Source: a virus (Duplodnaviria > Caudoviricetes). Taken from it: a stretch of 64,000 nucleotides of DNA. Of the stretch, positions 4,848-35,803 are shown piece by piece. The notes below the pieces were generated by a model. The model was not told the origin of the DNA. It did not search any database and saw nothing but the letters and a program-made list of their open reading frames with translations. Within the stretch, counting starts at the first letter, position 1. Each line of letters begins with the position of its first letter. The stretch covers positions 64,001 to 128,000 of the IMG/VR virus record IMGVR_UViG_3300033068_001957; one strand, written 5' to 3'. Both the position numbers and the translations under genes were made by a program.

Positions 4848-5579
4848 ATGCTCGTCTGCTATTTCGGGAAAAATAGTTTAAATAATTCTGGAATCTATAA
4901 AATATCTAATTCTATAGATGATAGAATATATATTGGATCGTCCAAAAGTTTTCGCGCCCGTTTTAAAAAGCATGAATTTGATTTGGCGGAAGGAAGGCAT
5001 CACTCTATCCATATGGAAAGGTTTTGCTCTAAATATTTCGAAGATGTCATTTTTTATTTTGAGATTTTAGAGATTACAGAAAAAGACCAACTCATAAATC
5101 GAGAACAATATTATTTAGATACCTTGCTACCATTTGGCGAAAAGGGCTTTAATATGAGAAAGAAGGCAATTTCTTCGGCTGGGACACAAAAGGTCAAAAG
5201 GTCATTTTATCAATACGATAAGGATGGAAATGAGATTTCTTTTTTAAATATAGAGGAAATGGCGTCTTCGACTGGACTAAATAAAAACACAATGAGAGGA
5301 GCCTTGACGGGGCAATTTAAAACGTGTGGAGGTTTCATTTTTTCCTATGATAAACTTTCAAAAGAAGAAGTAAATAATATTTTGGCAGACAAAAGAAAAA
5401 CGAGATACACTAGACCAAATCTAAATCGTAGAGTTACGGCAATTTCCCTTGAACACGGCAAACATGAGTATGAAACTGCATTGAAAGCATCCCAAGAGCT
5501 TGGCATATGTGATATTTCTATTAGAAAAGCTTGTAGGAAAGGCCATTATTATAAAGGCTATAAGTGGAGTTATTCTTAA
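4848..5579 (+). CDS. GIY-YIG homing endonuclease with NUMOD-type C-terminus
   Basis: GIYKI...IYIGSS...R...REQYYLD...FN; IRKACRKG..YKGYKWSY. Confidence 0.9.
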   Translation: MLVCYFGKNSLNNSGIYKISNSIDDRIYIGSSKSFRARFKKHEFDLAEGRHHSIHMERFCSKYFEDVIFYFEILEITEKDQLINREQYYLDTLLPFGEKGFNMRKKAISSAGTQKVKRSFYQYDKDGNEISFLNIEEMASSTGLNKNTMRGALTGQFKTCGGFIFSYDKLSKEEVNNILADKRKTRYTRPNLNRRVTAISLEHGKHEYETALKASQELGICDISIRKACRKGHYYKGYKWSYS

Positions 5580-7528: not shown

Positions 7529-8683
7529 ATGAATTTAGCCCATGCTTATAGCAACTACCTCGGAGTCGTACCGACTGAACGGCCAATATTAAACGAACAA
7601 TTTTTTCCCCTCAAAGACGAAAAGTTCATTACGATTCACAATGATAGGAAATTAGAATCAAAATTCTTCGAGTATTTTCCAGAAGTTATTTCGCTACTAA
7701 AACCCATTCTTTCTCAACTTGGATATAAGATTTATCAAATCGGCGGGCCAAATGATCCAATTTTAGATGGGACGGATTCTCAGTTTTTGGGTCTATCATG
7801 GCCACAAAGCGTTTATATCCTTAAGCGCAGCAGTCTTCACATAGGTATTGATAGTGCTCCTGTACACATTTCGAGCGCATATGATGTGCCAACGATTATT
7901 TTATATAGTCACATATATAGCCAACAAGCTCGCCCGATTTGGGCCGACCCGAAAAAGACAATCATTCTAGAACCAGACTGGGGCGATAAAAAACCCTCCT
8001 ATTCCCCCGTCGAAAACCCAAAAATGATTCGCACAATCAAAGTCGAATCAATCGTCCAATCGGCATTCAAGCTTCTCGATATTGATGTAAAGCTGGACAT
8101 GAAAACCCTCCGTGTCGGTAATGATTACCACGAAGCGGTTATGGAAATTATACCAGACTTTTTCGCCGAAAATCCCGCGTTAAAGAATGGGCTTTTACAT
8201 TTTAGAATGGATTTAACCCACAATGAGCCATGTCTCTTTCATTGGTTGAAAAGCGGTTATCGGGCGAATATTATTACCAGCAAACCAATTGATGTTGCCG
8301 CGCTAAAACAATTCAAGTCGCAAATTCATCGCATTACTTTAATCGCCGAAAATACAGACTCTTACACGCTCGATTACGTAAAAAACGTAAAAAGTCTTGG
8401 CCTAGATGTTTTGATGATGGGGCCGAATAAAGAAACCCTTCCTTGGGTGCGCGAGAAGTTTTTCGATTATTCTGTTGAAAGTTTGGACTATCCAGAACGT
8501 TCTCTTGTTGACAAGATTCCGCCGTATGCTAAATTCTTCTCCAAGAAACAAGTCCATAGCAACGGCAAAATCTTTCCTAGCATCGCCCATTATAAGCAAA
8601 ATTTGTGTTTTGCAAAATCGAATAGGATTATAGATTCGCAAGAATTCTGGTTAGATATAGAATATTTTTATTTTTACCTATAA
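7529..8683 (+). CDS. glycosyltransferase family 9 (heptosyltransferase-like); last 29 codons belong to the TnpB cassette
   Basis: QIGG...HIGIDSAPVHISSAYDVPTIILY. Confidence 0.8.
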   Translation: MNLAHAYSNYLGVVPTERPILNEQFFPLKDEKFITIHNDRKLESKFFEYFPEVISLLKPILSQLGYKIYQIGGPNDPILDGTDSQFLGLSWPQSVYILKRSSLHIGIDSAPVHISSAYDVPTIILYSHIYSQQARPIWADPKKTIILEPDWGDKKPSYSPVENPKMIRTIKVESIVQSAFKLLDIDVKLDMKTLRVGNDYHEAVMEIIPDFFAENPALKNGLLHFRMDLTHNEPCLFHWLKSGYRANIITSKPIDVAALKQFKSQIHRITLIAENTDSYTLDYVKNVKSLGLDVLMMGPNKETLPWVREKFFDYSVESLDYPERSLVDKIPPYAKFFSKKQVHSNGKIFPSIAHYKQNLCFAKSNRIIDSQEFWLDIEYFYFYL

Positions 8684-9948
8684 AGGGAGAATTTTAGTAA
8701 AAATAAGTAATTTTTCTAAAATCAAGTGTAATATACTATGAGTGACACATCGCGCATATAAATTCCGAATCTATCCGACTTCAGAACAGGAAGTTCTTTT
8801 ACGAAGGACTATTGGTAGCTGCCGCTATATTTATAATTGGGCGCTGAATATGAAAAGGGAGGAATGGGTTCAAAATAAAAAAAATCTATCTTATGCTAAA
8901 GTATGCAAATCCTTGACGGAAACGAAAAAGGTGCTGGATTATAATTGGCTTAATAATGTATCAAGTGTTTGCTTGCAGCAGTCATTGAGAAACTTAGATG
9001 TTGCATTTGTTAATTTCTTTAAAAAACGCGCTTCTTATCCAAGTTTTAAATGTCGTAAAAATGGCGGTTCTGCGCGCTTCCTTCAAAATGCATTTCGGAT
9101 TAATGGAGATAATTTATTTCTTGCAAAGATTGAATCTCCGATTAAAGTCTCTTGGACGCGAAAGTTAAATGGGAAATCTAACCAATGTGTTGTCTCTCAA
9201 AACGCTGCTGGCCAATGGTTCGCCTCATTTCTTTATGAAGAAGAGATTGAAAAATTAGCGCCGCTAGATAAAGATGTCGGTATTGACTTGGGGATCGAAA
9301 CGTTCGCGTCAACCTCAGACGGGCAAAAGTATGGACAGCCTAAGCGCATTCGTCGATTGAGAAAGAAGTTGGCGCGTTTGCAACGCCAGCATTCTCGCAA
9401 GATTAAGGGTTCAAAGAACCGTGAAAAGGCTCGCCTCAAGGTTGCCCGTTTGCACCAGCACATTTCAGATGTGCGCAAAGATTTTCTTCATAAGCTTTCC
9501 ACAAAACTCATTCGTGAAAACCAAACGATTGCGTTGGAGGATTTGGCCGTTAAAAACATGGTTAAGAATCGTAAACTTTCTCGCTGTATCAGCGAACAAG
9601 GCTGGCGAATATTCCGAAATATGTTAAAGTATAAGGCTGAGTGGTATGGGCGAGAATTGGTCATCATTGACCGATTCTACCCGAGCAGCAAGACGTGCTC
9701 TTGCTGCGGAAGAAAAACAAATCTTTCGCTTGACAAACGAAAGTGGACATGCGAATGTGGTGTTACGCATGACCGAGACATTAACGCCGCCAAGAATATT
9801 CTCGCCGCTGGACAAGCGGTGCCATTTGCCTGTGGAGCAGACACAAGACCATCGAAGAACTACGTTCTTCGGGGCAGTCCGCGACGAAGCAGGAAACCTA
9901 AAGCGTGAGCTAAAGAATCTTTGTCATTCGTGGCAAAGAGAATGTCAA
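8594..9948 (+). mobile_element. TnpB cassette: recoded GT9 tail + late promoter + tnpB + omegaRNA/right end; no left-end hairpin
   Basis: starts after TTAT (8590-8593); ends GAAT-CTTTGTCA-TTCG-TGGCAAAG-AGAATG-TCAA (IS608-type right end). Confidence 0.85.
8742..9908 (+). CDS. tnpB: RNA-guided endonuclease TnpB
   Basis: HRAYKFRIYPT; RuvC GIDLG / LEDL / DRDINAAKN intact; CSCC..CEC Zn finger. Confidence 0.95.
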   Translation: MTHRAYKFRIYPTSEQEVLLRRTIGSCRYIYNWALNMKREEWVQNKKNLSYAKVCKSLTETKKVLDYNWLNNVSSVCLQQSLRNLDVAFVNFFKKRASYPSFKCRKNGGSARFLQNAFRINGDNLFLAKIESPIKVSWTRKLNGKSNQCVVSQNAAGQWFASFLYEEEIEKLAPLDKDVGIDLGIETFASTSDGQKYGQPKRIRRLRKKLARLQRQHSRKIKGSKNREKARLKVARLHQHISDVRKDFLHKLSTKLIRENQTIALEDLAVKNMVKNRKLSRCISEQGWRIFRNMLKYKAEWYGRELVIIDRFYPSSKTCSCCGRKTNLSLDKRKWTCECGVTHDRDINAAKNILAAGQAVPFACGADTRPSKNYVLRGSPRRSRKPKA

Positions 9949-9968
9949 AAGCAAAACATTCCATTCTC
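9830..9968 (+). ncRNA. TnpB omegaRNA with predicted guide AAGCAAAACAUUCCAUUCUC
   Basis: overlaps tnpB 3' end; CGAAGAAC-TAC-GTTCTTCG hairpin shared with second element; 5' boundary approximate. Confidence 0.7.
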
Positions 9969-10038
9969 GAAAGCCAATAGAATAATTGATAGTGATGATT
10001 TTTGGCTTGATATTGAGTATTATTACTTCTATCTTTAA
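9949..10038 (+). pseudogene. displaced original 3' end of the GT9 gene
   Basis: KQNIPFSKANRIIDSDDFWLDIEYYYFYL*, 22/29 aa identical to 8594-8683, both 90 nt. Confidence 0.9.
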
Positions 10039-10041
10039 TTT

Positions 10042-10884
10042 ATGACCGATACGACATCTGCCACTCCCGAGCAAGAAACAACCGCATTTCCAATTAGCAA
10101 TCCAAAATACAAAGATGGCCCAGAAAAACTTCGCCGTAATGAATATGGGTTGTTTGAGAATGTTGATTACAAATATACTCCAGATGGATTCGTTGACTGG
10201 AAATCCATGATCAATCCAAAGTTCCTCTACCCCAACAAGGCGTGGTTTGAGCGAAACAATAAACCAATCCCAGATTCCATTGATGGCCTACAGGATCATC
10301 AAATCATTTGCAAACTTGGCGGGTATAAAGAATTGGCGCGGCTTCGCGGGTTTTCCAACGTAGAATATAAGCTGGAATACCTTGAAAACGGCGTATCATG
10401 TATTTGCACTATTACATGGATTCCGAACTACGAAACAGCGGTTCATTCCGAAAACAAATATTCGTTTGCTGACACTGTAACATTTTCATCTATTGCTAAT
10501 TCTACCTCAGAGAATTGCGGCGATTCTTCGTCTTCGTTCTCCATGGCGATCTTTAAGGAAACGCAAGCCGAAAATCGTTCGTTTGTTCGCTGTGTTCGCA
10601 ATTTCTTAAACGTCAATGTCGTAGGAGAAGATGAAATTAGCAAAGGCGAAGATTCTACGGCAAAAGCCAATCAGGCTCAAACAAGCGGCCCAGACGCCCT
10701 GAATCCGCGCAAAAATCTAGAATCTCAAGCCCTTAAGAGAGGATACAAGACATTGGCCGATCTAAAAGCCTTCTTGAAGACAAAAAATTATACACCCAAA
10801 GAAAAAACCCCGACCCCATGGGCAAGTTATGACGACATTCCAGTTAGCGAATGCTGGAAAATTAGCCAATTGATTAACGAATAG
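10042..10884 (+). CDS. hypothetical protein, possibly single-strand annealing recombinase
   Basis: AENRSFVRCVRNFL helix loosely resembles Rad52/Sak. Confidence 0.35.
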   Translation: MTDTTSATPEQETTAFPISNPKYKDGPEKLRRNEYGLFENVDYKYTPDGFVDWKSMINPKFLYPNKAWFERNNKPIPDSIDGLQDHQIICKLGGYKELARLRGFSNVEYKLEYLENGVSCICTITWIPNYETAVHSENKYSFADTVTFSSIANSTSENCGDSSSSFSMAIFKETQAENRSFVRCVRNFLNVNVVGEDEISKGEDSTAKANQAQTSGPDALNPRKNLESQALKRGYKTLADLKAFLKTKNYTPKEKTPTPWASYDDIPVSECWKISQLINE

Positions 10885-11807: not shown

Positions 11808-12485
11808 ATGATTAAATTAATTTCCATTACAAAACCGCTCGTTGAAGGAATCGAAACGGCTAACAGCCTTATTGCTTATTGCGCTCGAATTAGTTCTCCC
11901 CAAAATCAATTAAATGTTGATACTGCTGATAAGCTTCTTAGATATTGTCTAAAACATAAGCACTTTTCGATCTTTGAGCAAGTATCGTGTGGTTTCGAGA
12001 TTGAGACGACGAGAGATATTGGACGGCAGATTTTGCGGCACAAATCCTTTTCATTTCAAGAATTTAGTCAAAGATATGCGCAAGCTGCGGAAGAGCCAAT
12101 CTTTAGAGAATGTAGAACTCAAGACTCTAAAAATCGTCAATCAAGCAACCCATCTACAGATTTTGGATTAATTGACTGGTGGACAGATACTCAGGACAAG
12201 GTTTTTGCGGATGCATACGCTGAATATGAGAGAGCTTTAGAAAAAGGAATCGCAAAAGAACAAGCTCGTGCTTTACTTCCAGAAGGGATGATTAAAACTA
12301 GGATGTTTGTTACTGGAAATCTAAGATCATTTATTACTTGGATCATGGTTCGGGCTGGAAAAGAAACACAAAAAGAACATCGTGATATTGCAAAATCTGC
12401 CGCCAAAATTCTTGAAGAACACTTCCCGTTTCTAAAAGAAGTATTTTTAGAAATCTACAGCGACGAATATTCAGCAGAAAGTTAG
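11808..12485 (+). CDS. thyX: FAD-dependent thymidylate synthase
   Basis: HFSIFEQ, QILRHKSFSFQEFSQRY, EQARALLP. Confidence 0.95.
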   Translation: MIKLISITKPLVEGIETANSLIAYCARISSPQNQLNVDTADKLLRYCLKHKHFSIFEQVSCGFEIETTRDIGRQILRHKSFSFQEFSQRYAQAAEEPIFRECRTQDSKNRQSSNPSTDFGLIDWWTDTQDKVFADAYAEYERALEKGIAKEQARALLPEGMIKTRMFVTGNLRSFITWIMVRAGKETQKEHRDIAKSAAKILEEHFPFLKEVFLEIYSDEYSAES

Positions 12486-31208: not shown

Positions 31209-31676
31209 ATGAAACTACTCGGATATCATAACGGCAAACAAGTAGTAGCCTCAATGGCTCGTCATGACTATAACGCTATCGAAGGCGCTATGGCCGATGG
31301 TGGACAACCATCTACACTACAATATGGTGGATATAATCGTTGGAACGGAAAATCTATCTGGTTCCAAGTACCTCAGTCTTTTGCAGAACTCTATAACGAC
31401 TATAGAGACAACGCCGCTAATCGTAAATATGGAATTTGGGATCTTAAAGACGTAAAAATTCTTTCTCCCGAAGAAATTCCAGATACAGAATCTTTTGAAT
31501 GGCGAGCAGAAAATGCAATCTGGGGAACCAAGGGTATCGACGGCACACAGCGAACAAAATACGTCCATTTAAAAGACTGTTCAAAAGAACACCTAGAAAA
31601 GATAGTCGAATTGTGTAAGGCGCGGAATGCAAAAGACGTTCTTCAATACGCCGAATACTGGCTTAATCAAAAATGA
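31209..31676 (+). CDS. hypothetical phage protein
   Basis: RHDY...DGG; WGTKGIDG. Confidence 0.7.
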   Translation: MKLLGYHNGKQVVASMARHDYNAIEGAMADGGQPSTLQYGGYNRWNGKSIWFQVPQSFAELYNDYRDNAANRKYGIWDLKDVKILSPEEIPDTESFEWRAENAIWGTKGIDGTQRTKYVHLKDCSKEHLEKIVELCKARNAKDVLQYAEYWLNQK

Positions 31677-31746
31677 AAACAGACGACGAAATCATTGGCA
31701 CCCAAGATTGGGAACTAGAAGGCTGCGAAGATTAACAAATACACAT

Positions 31747-31893
31747 ATGCTGAACGACCTAAAATCACTCTACACGGAAATCTGCGACAGTTGGTCACAC
31801 ATCATTAATCCAATTTTGCTTAAATATCTGAATTTTGCGGATTCTGTTGAAGAAACGCTATTAGTTGCTCTACTACTTCTTGATGACGATTGA
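31747..31893 (+). CDS. small protein whose stop codon is supplied by the IS right end
   Basis: ends GAT TGA; empty-site reconstruction ends GAA TAA. Confidence 0.55.
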   Translation: MLNDLKSLYTEICDSWSHIINPILLKYLNFADSVEETLLVALLLLDDD

Positions 31894-33237
31894 ACTTTGC
31901 CACGAATAGAGCGCGGCATTCATCTTTTGTCGGGCGTTCTTGATTTTTTCCATCCTAAGACGAAGTTTCCAAGCCTCGCGACTCAGTTTTACTCTTTCGC
32001 TGCCGAATGCCGCGAAGAACGTAGTTCTTCGTTGGTCTTCCATCGACTCCAGAGTCAGTAACCACTAATCCAGCGGCCAAAATGTTTTTCGCAGCGTTAA
32101 CGTCTCTTAAGTGGTCAGCGCCGCAGCCGCCACACGTCCATTGCCTTGTTTCTAGGCCAAAGCTGGCCTTCGCCCCACAACACGAACACGTTTTGCTGCT
32201 CGGAAAGAACCGATCTACAACGTGTAGCTCGCGTCCATACCATTCGCATTTGTATTCTAGCATGGTGCGAAAGTCTCGCCAGCCTTGCTCGCTGATACAG
32301 CGAGAGAGCTTGCGGTTCTTGACCATGTTTGACACCGCCAAGTCTTCCAACGCAATCGCTTGGTTTTCGCGAACGAGTTGGGTTGACAGTTTGTGAAGGA
32401 AATCTTTGCGCACGTCTGCGATGTGCTGGTGAACACGGGCGACTTTCTTGCGAGCGCGTTCGCGGTTTTTAGAACCTTTTACTTTGCGAGAATGTAAGCG
32501 TTGAAGGCGGGCTAGTTTTTTACGCAAGCGGCGAATGCGCTTGGGCTGCGAAAACTTGCGGCCATCGCTCAAAGTCGCAAAATGTTCAATGCCAACGTCG
32601 ATACCGATTTTGTTTGAAGAAGGTGGGAGCTTGGCGACTTCTTCCTCACAAAGGAACGAAGCAAACCATTGGCCAGCAGCGTTTTGCGATACGGTAACGG
32701 AGTTTGGTGCTCCCGAGAGAGGGCGCGACCATTGAACTTTGATAGGCTCGCTCATTTTAGCGAGGAAAAGATTATCTTCTTTCAATCGAAAAGCGTTATC
32801 CATAAACCGTGCAGAACCGCCGTTTTTACGAGCTTTAAACGATGGATAAGCGTTTTTCTTTTTAAAGAAATTATTAAACGCCATATCTAGATTTCTCAAT
32901 GACTGCTGCAAGCAAACGCTCGATACATCATTGAGCCACTGGCGTTCGGGAGAATCCTTAAGATCGGTCAAACCTCGCGACGTTGCGCCATAAGTGACGC
33001 TTTTCTTATTCGTAACCCAAGCTTCGCGTTTTTGTGCGAGCGCCCAATTATATACAAATCTGCACGATCCTATCGTTTTACGCAAGATTTCCTCTTGACA
33101 AATTGTTGGATAGATGCGATACTTGTATGCGCGGTGCGTCATTCACTAATAGTTACACTTAACTTTACAAACTTTCCTAAAACAATGCGAAAATTCATCC
33201 CCTTCCTAAAGAAAGGGGTCTTCTTTTCGTCAATTTT
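31890..33237 (-). mobile_element. complete non-autonomous IS200/IS605 (IS1341-type, tnpB-only) element, TAM TTAT
   Basis: LE: TTAT|N15-AAGA-CCCCTTTCTTTAGGAAGGGG; RE: GAAT-GCCGCG..CGTGGC-AAAGT-TCAA. Confidence 0.9.
31955..33142 (-). CDS. tnpB: RNA-guided endonuclease TnpB
   Basis: RuvC GIDVG / LEDL / RDVNAAKN intact; close paralogue of 8742-9908. Confidence 0.95.
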   Translation of the reverse strand: MTHRAYKYRIYPTICQEEILRKTIGSCRFVYNWALAQKREAWVTNKKSVTYGATSRGLTDLKDSPERQWLNDVSSVCLQQSLRNLDMAFNNFFKKKNAYPSFKARKNGGSARFMDNAFRLKEDNLFLAKMSEPIKVQWSRPLSGAPNSVTVSQNAAGQWFASFLCEEEVAKLPPSSNKIGIDVGIEHFATLSDGRKFSQPKRIRRLRKKLARLQRLHSRKVKGSKNRERARKKVARVHQHIADVRKDFLHKLSTQLVRENQAIALEDLAVSNMVKNRKLSRCISEQGWRDFRTMLEYKCEWYGRELHVVDRFFPSSKTCSCCGAKASFGLETRQWTCGGCGADHLRDVNAAKNILAAGLVVTDSGVDGRPTKNYVLRGIRQRKSKTESRGLETSS

Positions 33238-35731: not shown

Positions 35732-35803
35732 TCTCTCGTAATTCAACAGTAGAATGCCACTCTTTTAAAGTGGAGGTTGAAGGTGCAACTCCTTCCGAGA
35801 GAA
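35732..35803 (+). tRNA. tRNA-Lys(UUU)
   Basis: TCTCTCG/CGAGAGA acceptor, CCACT-CTTTTAA-AGTGG anticodon arm, GAAGG-TGCAACT-CCTTC T arm. Confidence 0.88.

Follow-up and report, generated by a model that had tools for sequence, protein, structure and literature searches.

How can a tnpB element lie inside a phage gene and still leave a complete version of that gene behind, and does it persist there as a passenger or as something that spreads? The locus that raises this question lies in a 64,000-nt stretch of phage DNA, here called the window, which comprises bases 64001-128000 of the virus record IMGVR_UViG_3300033068_001957 (160,188 bp in a single record, 40% G+C, 100% complete by CheckV); all coordinates given without further indication are positions in this window. 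The relatives of the phage originate from freshwater metagenomes. Within a GT9-like glycosyltransferase gene of the window, an insert of 1,355 bp (8594-9948) stands between the tetranucleotide TTAT and an IS605-type right end closing in TCAA, and it carries a tnpB gene preceded by a second version of the end of the interrupted gene. TnpB is usually viewed as a helper that restores the transposon after its excision by TnpA. The explanation that we favor, at a probability of roughly 0.55, is that the insert is a TnpA-independent, RNA-guided TnpB homing cassette that carries a rescue tail. The architecture is real and beyond chance; what we infer is cleavage, how long the guide is, that the resident allele is immune and that the cassette actually spreads.

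The body of the GT9-like gene (7529-8593, plus strand, 355 codons) is native to the lineage, as indicated by its identity to the related locus L045 and synteny. Its Pfam Glyco_transf_9 match is marginal, with 22.3 bits for a cut-off of 22. The last 540 nt of the body are 87-100% identical to L045 in bins of 45 nt, and this identity drops to 60-64% exactly at 8593/8594. The order of a GT1-like gene, the GT9-like gene and a gene for a 280-aa protein is kept in 22 IMG/VR loci (L001-L022, tblastn synteny), in nearly all of which the last two genes lie a few bases apart. This conserved downstream gene, which normally abuts the GT9-like gene, is found at 10042-10884 on the plus strand of the window; Pfam and PHROG gave no match for it. 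The GT9-like relatives in IMG/VR and the JGI metagenomes are 29-44% identical, with the exception of L051 at 77%, and the closer, useful relatives came via the protein collection, a set of 5.8 billion proteins that yielded 73 homologues. The tails were compared at the DNA level in six relatives (L044-L048 and L051). The C-terminal FW.D.E.(F/Y)Y(F/I)Y motif of the homologues is kept down to about 40% identity, and the GT9-like tail is therefore probably required for the protein.

The TTAT at 8590-8593 (plus strand) represents the IS605-type target and presumed target-adjacent motif (TAM), an assignment based on five related elements with an intact left end, in which (T/C)TTAT is found 6-9 nt ahead of the left-end core GACGAAAAG, and on the uninterrupted site in L045. 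Since L045 reads CATTAT directly followed by AAAC..., both boundaries of the element are fixed, and the TTAT start and right-end boundary given in the earlier note hold. That joining 8593 to 9949 yields an in-frame gene also proved right: 7529-8593 amounts to exactly 355 codons, so that the junction restores a frame of 384 codons. The insertion occurred without target-site duplication, the 90-nt repeat that flanks tnpB being only 67% identical.

This repeat consists of two versions of the gene end. Tail 1 (8594-8683, plus strand) is the cassette-borne replacement of the last 29 codons and the stop codon, in frame with the body and foreign when compared to the relatives. Tail 2 (9949-10038, plus strand) is the displaced native tail; its stop codon lies 3 nt from the 280-aa gene, as in the relatives. 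Our recount agrees with the earlier one, with 60 of 90 nt and 22 of 29 residues identical between the tails and different codons used at 14 of the 22 identical residues. When the flanks of tnpB were compared against each other by tblastn, the repeat stood out with E = 2e-14, far above everything else in the first 22 loci. The earlier note had further claimed that the insert carries the replacement and that the native tail is the displaced one. The tails of the six relatives bear this out: they share 70-81 of 90 nt with tail 2 versus 51-57 with tail 1 (81 and 56, respectively, for L045). Homologues at 60-87% identity all end in tail 2-like sequence, and tail 2 matches the homologue P0002 at 28 of 29 residues. 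Tail 1 was absent from the 73 homologues in the protein collection, where the closest match reached 22 of 29 residues, and an exact search in IMG/VR returned no match. These comparisons identify tail 2 as the native tail of the lineage and tail 1 as a foreign or recoded one that completes the reading frame. Because of synteny, the tails of the relatives, the empty site in L045 and the identity drop at 8593/8594, we consider the insert a 1,355-bp foreign unit between native flanks.

Against the relatives, tail 1 uses other codons at 13-17 of 20-22 conserved residues, whereas natural relatives differ from tail 2 at just 5-10 of 23-27. Random codon choice would give 11-12 different codons for tail 1 (11.4 in the comparison with tail 2, for 14 of 22 seen), and judged in this way its synonymous sites are saturated against everything sampled. 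An active avoidance of tail 2 codons was considered and is not robust, with P = 0.16 against tail 2 and 0.003-0.29 against the relatives. A shift in GC or codon bias as the origin of the recoding was likewise rejected: third-position changes occur in both directions, the GC values are 25% and 29% and the mean relative synonymous codon usage is similar. At the protein level tail 1 retains the residues of the closest clade, KQN..NRIIDS..FWLDIEY.YFYL. It alters P to C at position 5 and A to S at position 9, both constant in homologues of at least 57% identity, and has at position 7 an A that is found there in no other homologue; all three changes fall within the stretch that the presumed guide would read. 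The second half of tail 1 is similar to the natural tail of L051, which makes an unsampled natural donor plausible. Both window tails have AAGCAAAA in common, which is compatible with the guide region having been co-converted along with the cassette but does not prove it. A 130-codon open reading frame (ORF) at 9646-10038 starts inside tnpB in another frame and runs in frame through tail 2 to its stop codon. It is probably due to chance; it could preserve translational coupling.

The nuclease gene of the insert, tnpB (8742-9908, plus strand), encodes 388 aa from a GTG start and was assigned to the ISDra2 type on the basis of Pfam, invariant RuvC residues and PDB matches. The Pfam families found are HTH_OrfB_IS605 (E = 1.7e-19), OrfB_IS605, which holds the RuvC domain (1.1e-31), and Cas12f1-like_TNB (1.5e-26), and residues 3-356 match the structures of ISDra2 TnpB (PDB 8bf8/8exa/8h1j) with E = 6e-69. 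The RuvC triad, previously described as intact, is formed by D182, E266 and D346, which are invariant in the family alignment and lie in the motifs DLGI, EDL and DRD when aligned with a TnpB homologue of solved structure. Among the other ORFs of the insert no family match besides TnpB was found, and no LAGLIDADG or GIY-YIG endonuclease. Downstream and overlapping the gene, the omegaRNA scaffold and right end occupy 9800-9948 of the plus strand (start approximate), as delimited with RNAalifold from 8 family members. The consensus, calculated over the last ~150-200 nt up to TCAA, contains 52 pairs, 17 of which show compensatory changes, and the terminal stem covaries between CTTTGTC/GGCAAAG in this cassette (WIN1) and CCCCGTC/GGCGGGG in relatives. 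The right end is composed of GAAT (9915-9918), a hairpin (9919-9938), GAATG and TCAA (9945-9948); the right ends of the family all close in (A/G/T)ATGTCAA or AGTTCAA. At gathering threshold no Rfam family matched the omegaRNA, and the Rfam scan of the whole window at this threshold gave one tRNA only and no group I intron ribozyme. By comparison with their relatives, TnpB and the omegaRNA scaffold look functional.

The left end differs from that of a canonical element. Relatives with an intact left end have, after the (T/C)TTAT and the 6-9 nt mentioned above, GACGAAAAG, a CCCC/GGGG hairpin, GAATTTTCGCA and then AAGTGTAAT, which precedes the start codon by about 8 nt. The core GACGAAAAG...CCCC-loop-GGGG is present in WIN2, WIN3, L023, L026, L027 and L028 and is diverged in L076. 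In the cassette, tail 1 stands in place of all left-end sequence as far as the 3' arm of the hairpin, and its stop codon abuts AGGGAGAATTTT..., the beginning of a left-end remnant (8684-8741, plus strand; alignment with WIN2, WIN3, L023, L026, L027, L028 and L076) that includes the AAGTGTAATAT box at 8724-8734. Tail 1 and tnpB are thereby separated by only 58 nt. The alignment with related left ends confirmed that the subterminal hairpin recognised by TnpA is missing from the cassette, where only the 3' part of the left end with its AAGTGTAAT promoter box remains. Because this hairpin is missing, TnpA cannot mobilise the cassette. A Y1 TnpA (PF01797) gave no match in the 160-kb, CheckV-complete phage record; the enzyme may be supplied by the host. 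The promoter box had been taken for a phage motif. It does resemble motifs upstream of several phage genes, but it belongs to the element in all relatives from other phages: A(A/C)AGTGTAAT is found 3-10 nt upstream of several phage ORF starts and of all tnpB genes of the cassette's family, including those in other phages (window position 8724; genome positions 31112, 68280, 133404, 5622 and 143874). It could be a shared -10-like promoter that gives near-leaderless transcripts.

In ISDra2 the ~16 nt next to the right end serve as guide, the TAM corresponds to the TnpA target and the cut falls 15-21 bp from the TAM (PMC8612924). By analogy the guide of the cassette would start at 9949, with the first 16-20 nt of tail 2 as presumed guide template and its remainder as right homology arm. 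The resident site, TTAT followed by tail 1, matches guide positions 1-8 and mismatches at positions 9, 10, 12-15, 18 and 19, in line with the 8 mismatches in 20 counted before. The perfect match to the guide at 9949 is preceded by TCAA, not TTAT, and no other TTAT-flanked match was found in the phage genome. The cassette would have started as a canonical insertion directly after TTAT, since only this explains the exact junction between right end and target. The omegaRNA would be transcribed through TCAA, with ~16 nt of tail 2 becoming the guide, and TnpB would then cut cassette-free alleles (TTAT and a matching tail) of co-infecting relatives at 15-21 bp from the TAM. Repair of the break from the cassette-bearing genome, with the gene body on one side and tail 2 plus the downstream gene on the other as arms, would copy tail 1, tnpB and the omegaRNA as a single unit. 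The resident site would be spared because the guide mismatches it from position 9 on, and the divergence of the tails would also block loss of the cassette via direct-repeat recombination.

Several points weigh against this homing cycle. TAM, guide length and cleavage are extrapolated to the cassette from ISDra2, and the locus is read from a metagenome assembly. The empty allele in related phages, which the earlier note had proposed to search for, was found in L045; an exact match to the guide was not present in any sampled empty allele, all of which have AAA, not AAG, at target positions 1-3. A TTAT in the TAM position occurs in L045 only, and this allele differs from the guide in positions 3 and 10; the remaining empty alleles carry TTAC or CTAC instead. 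Among the closest relatives compared at the DNA level (L044, L045 and L046) the gene that follows the GT9-like gene is not the same, so that the right homology arm may extend over no more than 90 bp. IMG/VR, the JGI metagenomes and the 5.8-billion-protein set yielded no second copy of the cassette or of tail 1 and no TnpB of more than 83% identity, so that spread is not documented. Finally, the elements of L023-L025 sit in genes without any rescue, and L074 and L077 have neither the left-end hairpin nor a duplicated tail; a missing left end is therefore not diagnostic by itself.

Does the same layout occur elsewhere? The survey of phage tnpB loci for flanking protein-level duplications that the earlier note had suggested covered 22 + 80 + 75 phage loci, some contigs recurring between the sets, and 78 bacterial loci; IMG/VR alone contains more than 500 phage tnpB loci of this subfamily. 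Among the ~175 phage loci surveyed one clear case was found besides the cassette of the window, L141 (IMG/VR, 14.6 kb); the 78 bacterial loci held no case of a duplicated tail. In L141 a helix-turn-helix/HNH-like gene ends in a 35-residue tail and tnpB starts 32 nt further on, with a TTGACA-17-TATATT promoter ahead of it and no room for a left-end hairpin. This tnpB is 42% identical to that of the window. Its right end, ...GAATGTCAA, is immediately followed by the second tail, and the two tails share 62 of 96 nt and 18 of 32 residues. The closest relative of L141, L156 (P0195), has a single gene whose tail is identical to the downstream tail of L141 at 92 of 99 nt and to the upstream tail at 62 of 99. 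Downstream of tail 2, L141 and L156 are identical at 189 of 200 nt, and the identity of the gene body to the relative falls from 87-93% to 63-64% at the junction. On these alignments L141 is an independent case of the anatomy of the window cassette, in another phage, another host gene and another TnpB lineage. A search for IMG/VR relatives of the L141 tnpB or of its host gene returned the locus itself only. The six bases before the L141 junction are AACGAC (1340-1348), versus AATGAT/AATGAC in the cassette-free L156 and L155. The difference is synonymous and could be a TAM-escape change.

With two such loci, a wider proposal can be stated, possible but held more tentatively than our explanation of the window cassette. 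Phage TnpB elements may repeatedly have become natural RNA-guided home-and-rescue drives, in that they would have shed the TnpA-dependent left end and gained a guide-immune recoded gene end, with the native end serving as guide template and homology arm, and would spread between co-infecting phages with the host gene unharmed.

The main rival, which we judge unlikely, is a one-off repair. A canonical insertion directly after TTAT would have truncated the gene, illegitimate recombination would have pasted the tail of a divergent phage over the left end, and the product would have been kept for the restored protein, with TnpB stranded and no homing. The uniqueness of the cassette across all collections searched agrees with such a single event, as does the lack of a sampled target allele with an exact match; the L051-like second half of tail 1 makes a natural donor plausible, and relatives show decay of the left end without tail duplication. 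However, the foreign patch starts within 8 nt of the TAM, although homologous recombination could have placed the left crossover at any point of the body, and the tnpB gene, its promoter and the omegaRNA are all intact, the last with covariation. The layout also arose independently in L141. Tail 2, with 28 of 29 residues identical to P0002, shows no decay, which argues for a recent arrival rather than an old scar. A different view of an active nuclease is that TnpB and its omegaRNA chiefly destroy competing relatives with an uninterrupted allele, copying being a by-product of this exclusion. The cleavage predicted is identical to that of the homing cassette, the closest relatives compared at the DNA level have other downstream genes and thus offer little right-arm homology for repair, and the killing of competitors too divergent for conversion by homing nucleases is discussed in PMC13565253. 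We nevertheless regard a mere weapon as improbable, as it does not alone explain the native flanks around a foreign cassette, the pattern left by copying into a new genome.

Two further rivals would make the layout a product of assembly or of gene duplication. A chimera joined via a shared tnpB, between a strain with an intact gene followed by tnpB and a strain with a canonical insertion directly after TTAT, is conceivable for a metagenome contig from mosaic phages; in P0010 the first third is unlike the protein of the window and the remainder is near-identical. Such a chimera would still require a strain in which tail 1 abuts a truncated left end. Moreover, the three tnpB copies of the genome are only 52-70% identical and therefore too divergent to misjoin, and L141, an independent assembly, has the same layout, all of which makes this explanation very improbable. 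We give hardly any credence to the remaining one, in which the element hit the second of two tandem paralogues, whose body and left end were then deleted. The survey does contain one locus, L142/L266, where two Cys-rich paralogues lie in tandem and the second has received a canonical insertion; it was rejected there because it is not a replacement tail. The GT9-like gene, however, is single in all 22 IMG/VR relatives and in every closer relative with DNA or called genes (L051 and the contigs of P0002, P0003, P0006, P0007, P0010 and P0033), and the body and tail 2 both match one relative, L045, at 90-100%.

How does the cassette compare with known systems? In tRNA/tmRNA islands and in phage 21 and e14, which reside in icd, an element-borne gene end replaces the native one and divergence starts at the crossover core. 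These integrative elements rely on attachment sites and site-specific recombinases instead of a nuclease and homologous repair. Engineered home-and-rescue and cleave-and-rescue CRISPR drives combine an RNA-guided nuclease directed at a needed gene with a recoded, guide-immune copy of it; they differ from the cassette in being synthetic, operating in diploid animals and using Cas9. The layout itself has a precedent in the fungal mitochondrial mORF elements with their protein-guided nucleases, found in atp6, atp9, cox2 and nad3 of Glomus sp. (PMC3630166) and, according to what PMC3630166 cites from Paquin et al. 1994, in atp6 of Allomyces macrogynus. There as here, a nuclease gene is inserted close to the end of a host gene and supplies a foreign in-frame C-terminus, and the native C-terminus is left downstream. 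The duplicates in Glomus are 64-81% identical in nucleotides and the native copy 91-98% to a close relative (PMC3630166), compared to 67% between the tails and 90% between native tail and relative in the window. The mORF nucleases are protein-guided LAGLIDADG or GIY-YIG enzymes, whereas TnpB is RNA-guided; in the cassette the displaced native tail would double as guide template, the insert joins the target on the right precisely at a transposon end (TCAA directly followed by target) and not through a repair scar, and the host is a phage.

With the tnpB-only elements of the IS200/IS605 group (IS1341 type; ISDra2, IS608) the cassette shares an ISDra2-type TnpB, an omegaRNA encoded by the last part of the gene together with the right end, integration on the 3' side of a T-rich tetranucleotide, the absence of target duplication and a guide taken from the flank. 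It differs in that it has no left-end hairpin and carries host coding sequence that repairs its target, and in that the proposed homing goes into other genomes and is not a restoration after excision. A homing function of TnpB in IS200/IS605 elements is described in PMC8612924, 10.1101/2023.03.14.532601 and PMC11870625. TnpB-driven, TnpA-independent spread of IS605 elements among plasmids is reported as well (PMC11870625, as cited in PMC13565253), and PMC13565253 and PMC11870625 put forward "non-restorative homing" into co-infecting phages. IStrons, which combine a group I intron with IS605/IS607, have often lost TnpA and kept TnpB, and the gene is restored by splicing (PMC10690162). They likewise represent TnpB elements that escape the cost of residing in a gene, but do so at the RNA level, whereas here a replacement tail acts at the DNA level and Rfam detected no ribozyme. 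A TnpB element that carries a replacement gene end was not described in the literature searched. The cassette and L141 thus suggest a third way for TnpB to live inside a gene, beside harmless sites and IStron splicing, namely DNA-level replacement of the displaced coding sequence, which bears on how the many tnpB-only copies in phages persist. If true, the proposed homing would link RNA-guided OMEGA nucleases to the lifestyle of mORF elements and homing endonucleases and provide a natural counterpart of engineered rescue drives. The locus also marks the 3' end of the GT9-like gene as a boundary of genetic exchange among these mosaic freshwater phages.

The two sister copies of tnpB in the same genome occupy harmless places. 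The sister element at 31890-33237 (minus strand) has an intact left-end hairpin, a TCAA right end and a tnpB gene (31955-33142) 70% identical to that of the cassette, and its TAM is the same TTAT, as claimed before, located at 33241-33238. Its insertion point coincides with the stop codon of an 88-aa ORF (31627-31893), where the minus-strand TTAT overlaps the original TAA; a TGA contributed by the right end (TTGA) ends this ORF, and the last residue alone changes, from E to D. The third element, outside the window at genome positions 156308-157612 (plus strand), with a tnpB at 156.4-157.5 kb that is 52% identical to that of the cassette, has an intact left-end hairpin and a right end reading ...GGATGTCAA. 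It is preceded by TCAT/TTAG, not TTAT, and apparently lies just upstream of the start of a minus-strand gene.

Among other family members, the element of L023-L025 (tnpB at 2488-3642 of L023) is inserted at TTAT some 45 codons from the end of its target gene; it has kept its left end, carries no replacement tail and represents a plain disruption. In L074 and L077 an upstream ORF ends ~50-75 nt before tnpB, at the place expected for the hairpin (~1380-1500), and the right flank of L074 contains a direct repeat of a GCTCCACGAA-type motif. In L028, a 165-kb phage contig, a TnpB element of 71% identity has, directly after its right end, the C-terminal half of a region with an HNH endonuclease motif (~5205-5400); a minus-strand gene lies upstream of the left end, and the HNH gene seemingly has no N-terminus. 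In the survey, L031 and L259 were rejected, as tnpB is flanked there by two full-length divergent paralogues and not by a duplicated tail; these are dCMP-deaminase-like and 30% identical in L031 (3330-5838) and IscA-like and 37% identical in L259 (1053-3178). Their layout could reflect chance tandem paralogues or nuclease-linked whole-gene replacement. The matches in the bacterial loci were translations of left-end or right-end hairpins or TPR repeats.

The glycosyltransferase region appears to be a hotspot of mosaic exchange and of mobile nucleases. In close relatives, a GIY-YIG gene (L044 1444-2481) and a faint LAGLIDADG-like gene (L047 1540-2517) each adjoin the two glycosyltransferase-like genes. 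Elsewhere in the window, a ThyX-type thymidylate synthase gene is found at 11808-12485, and the tRNA gene returned by the Rfam scan (64.6 bits) is located at 35732-35803.

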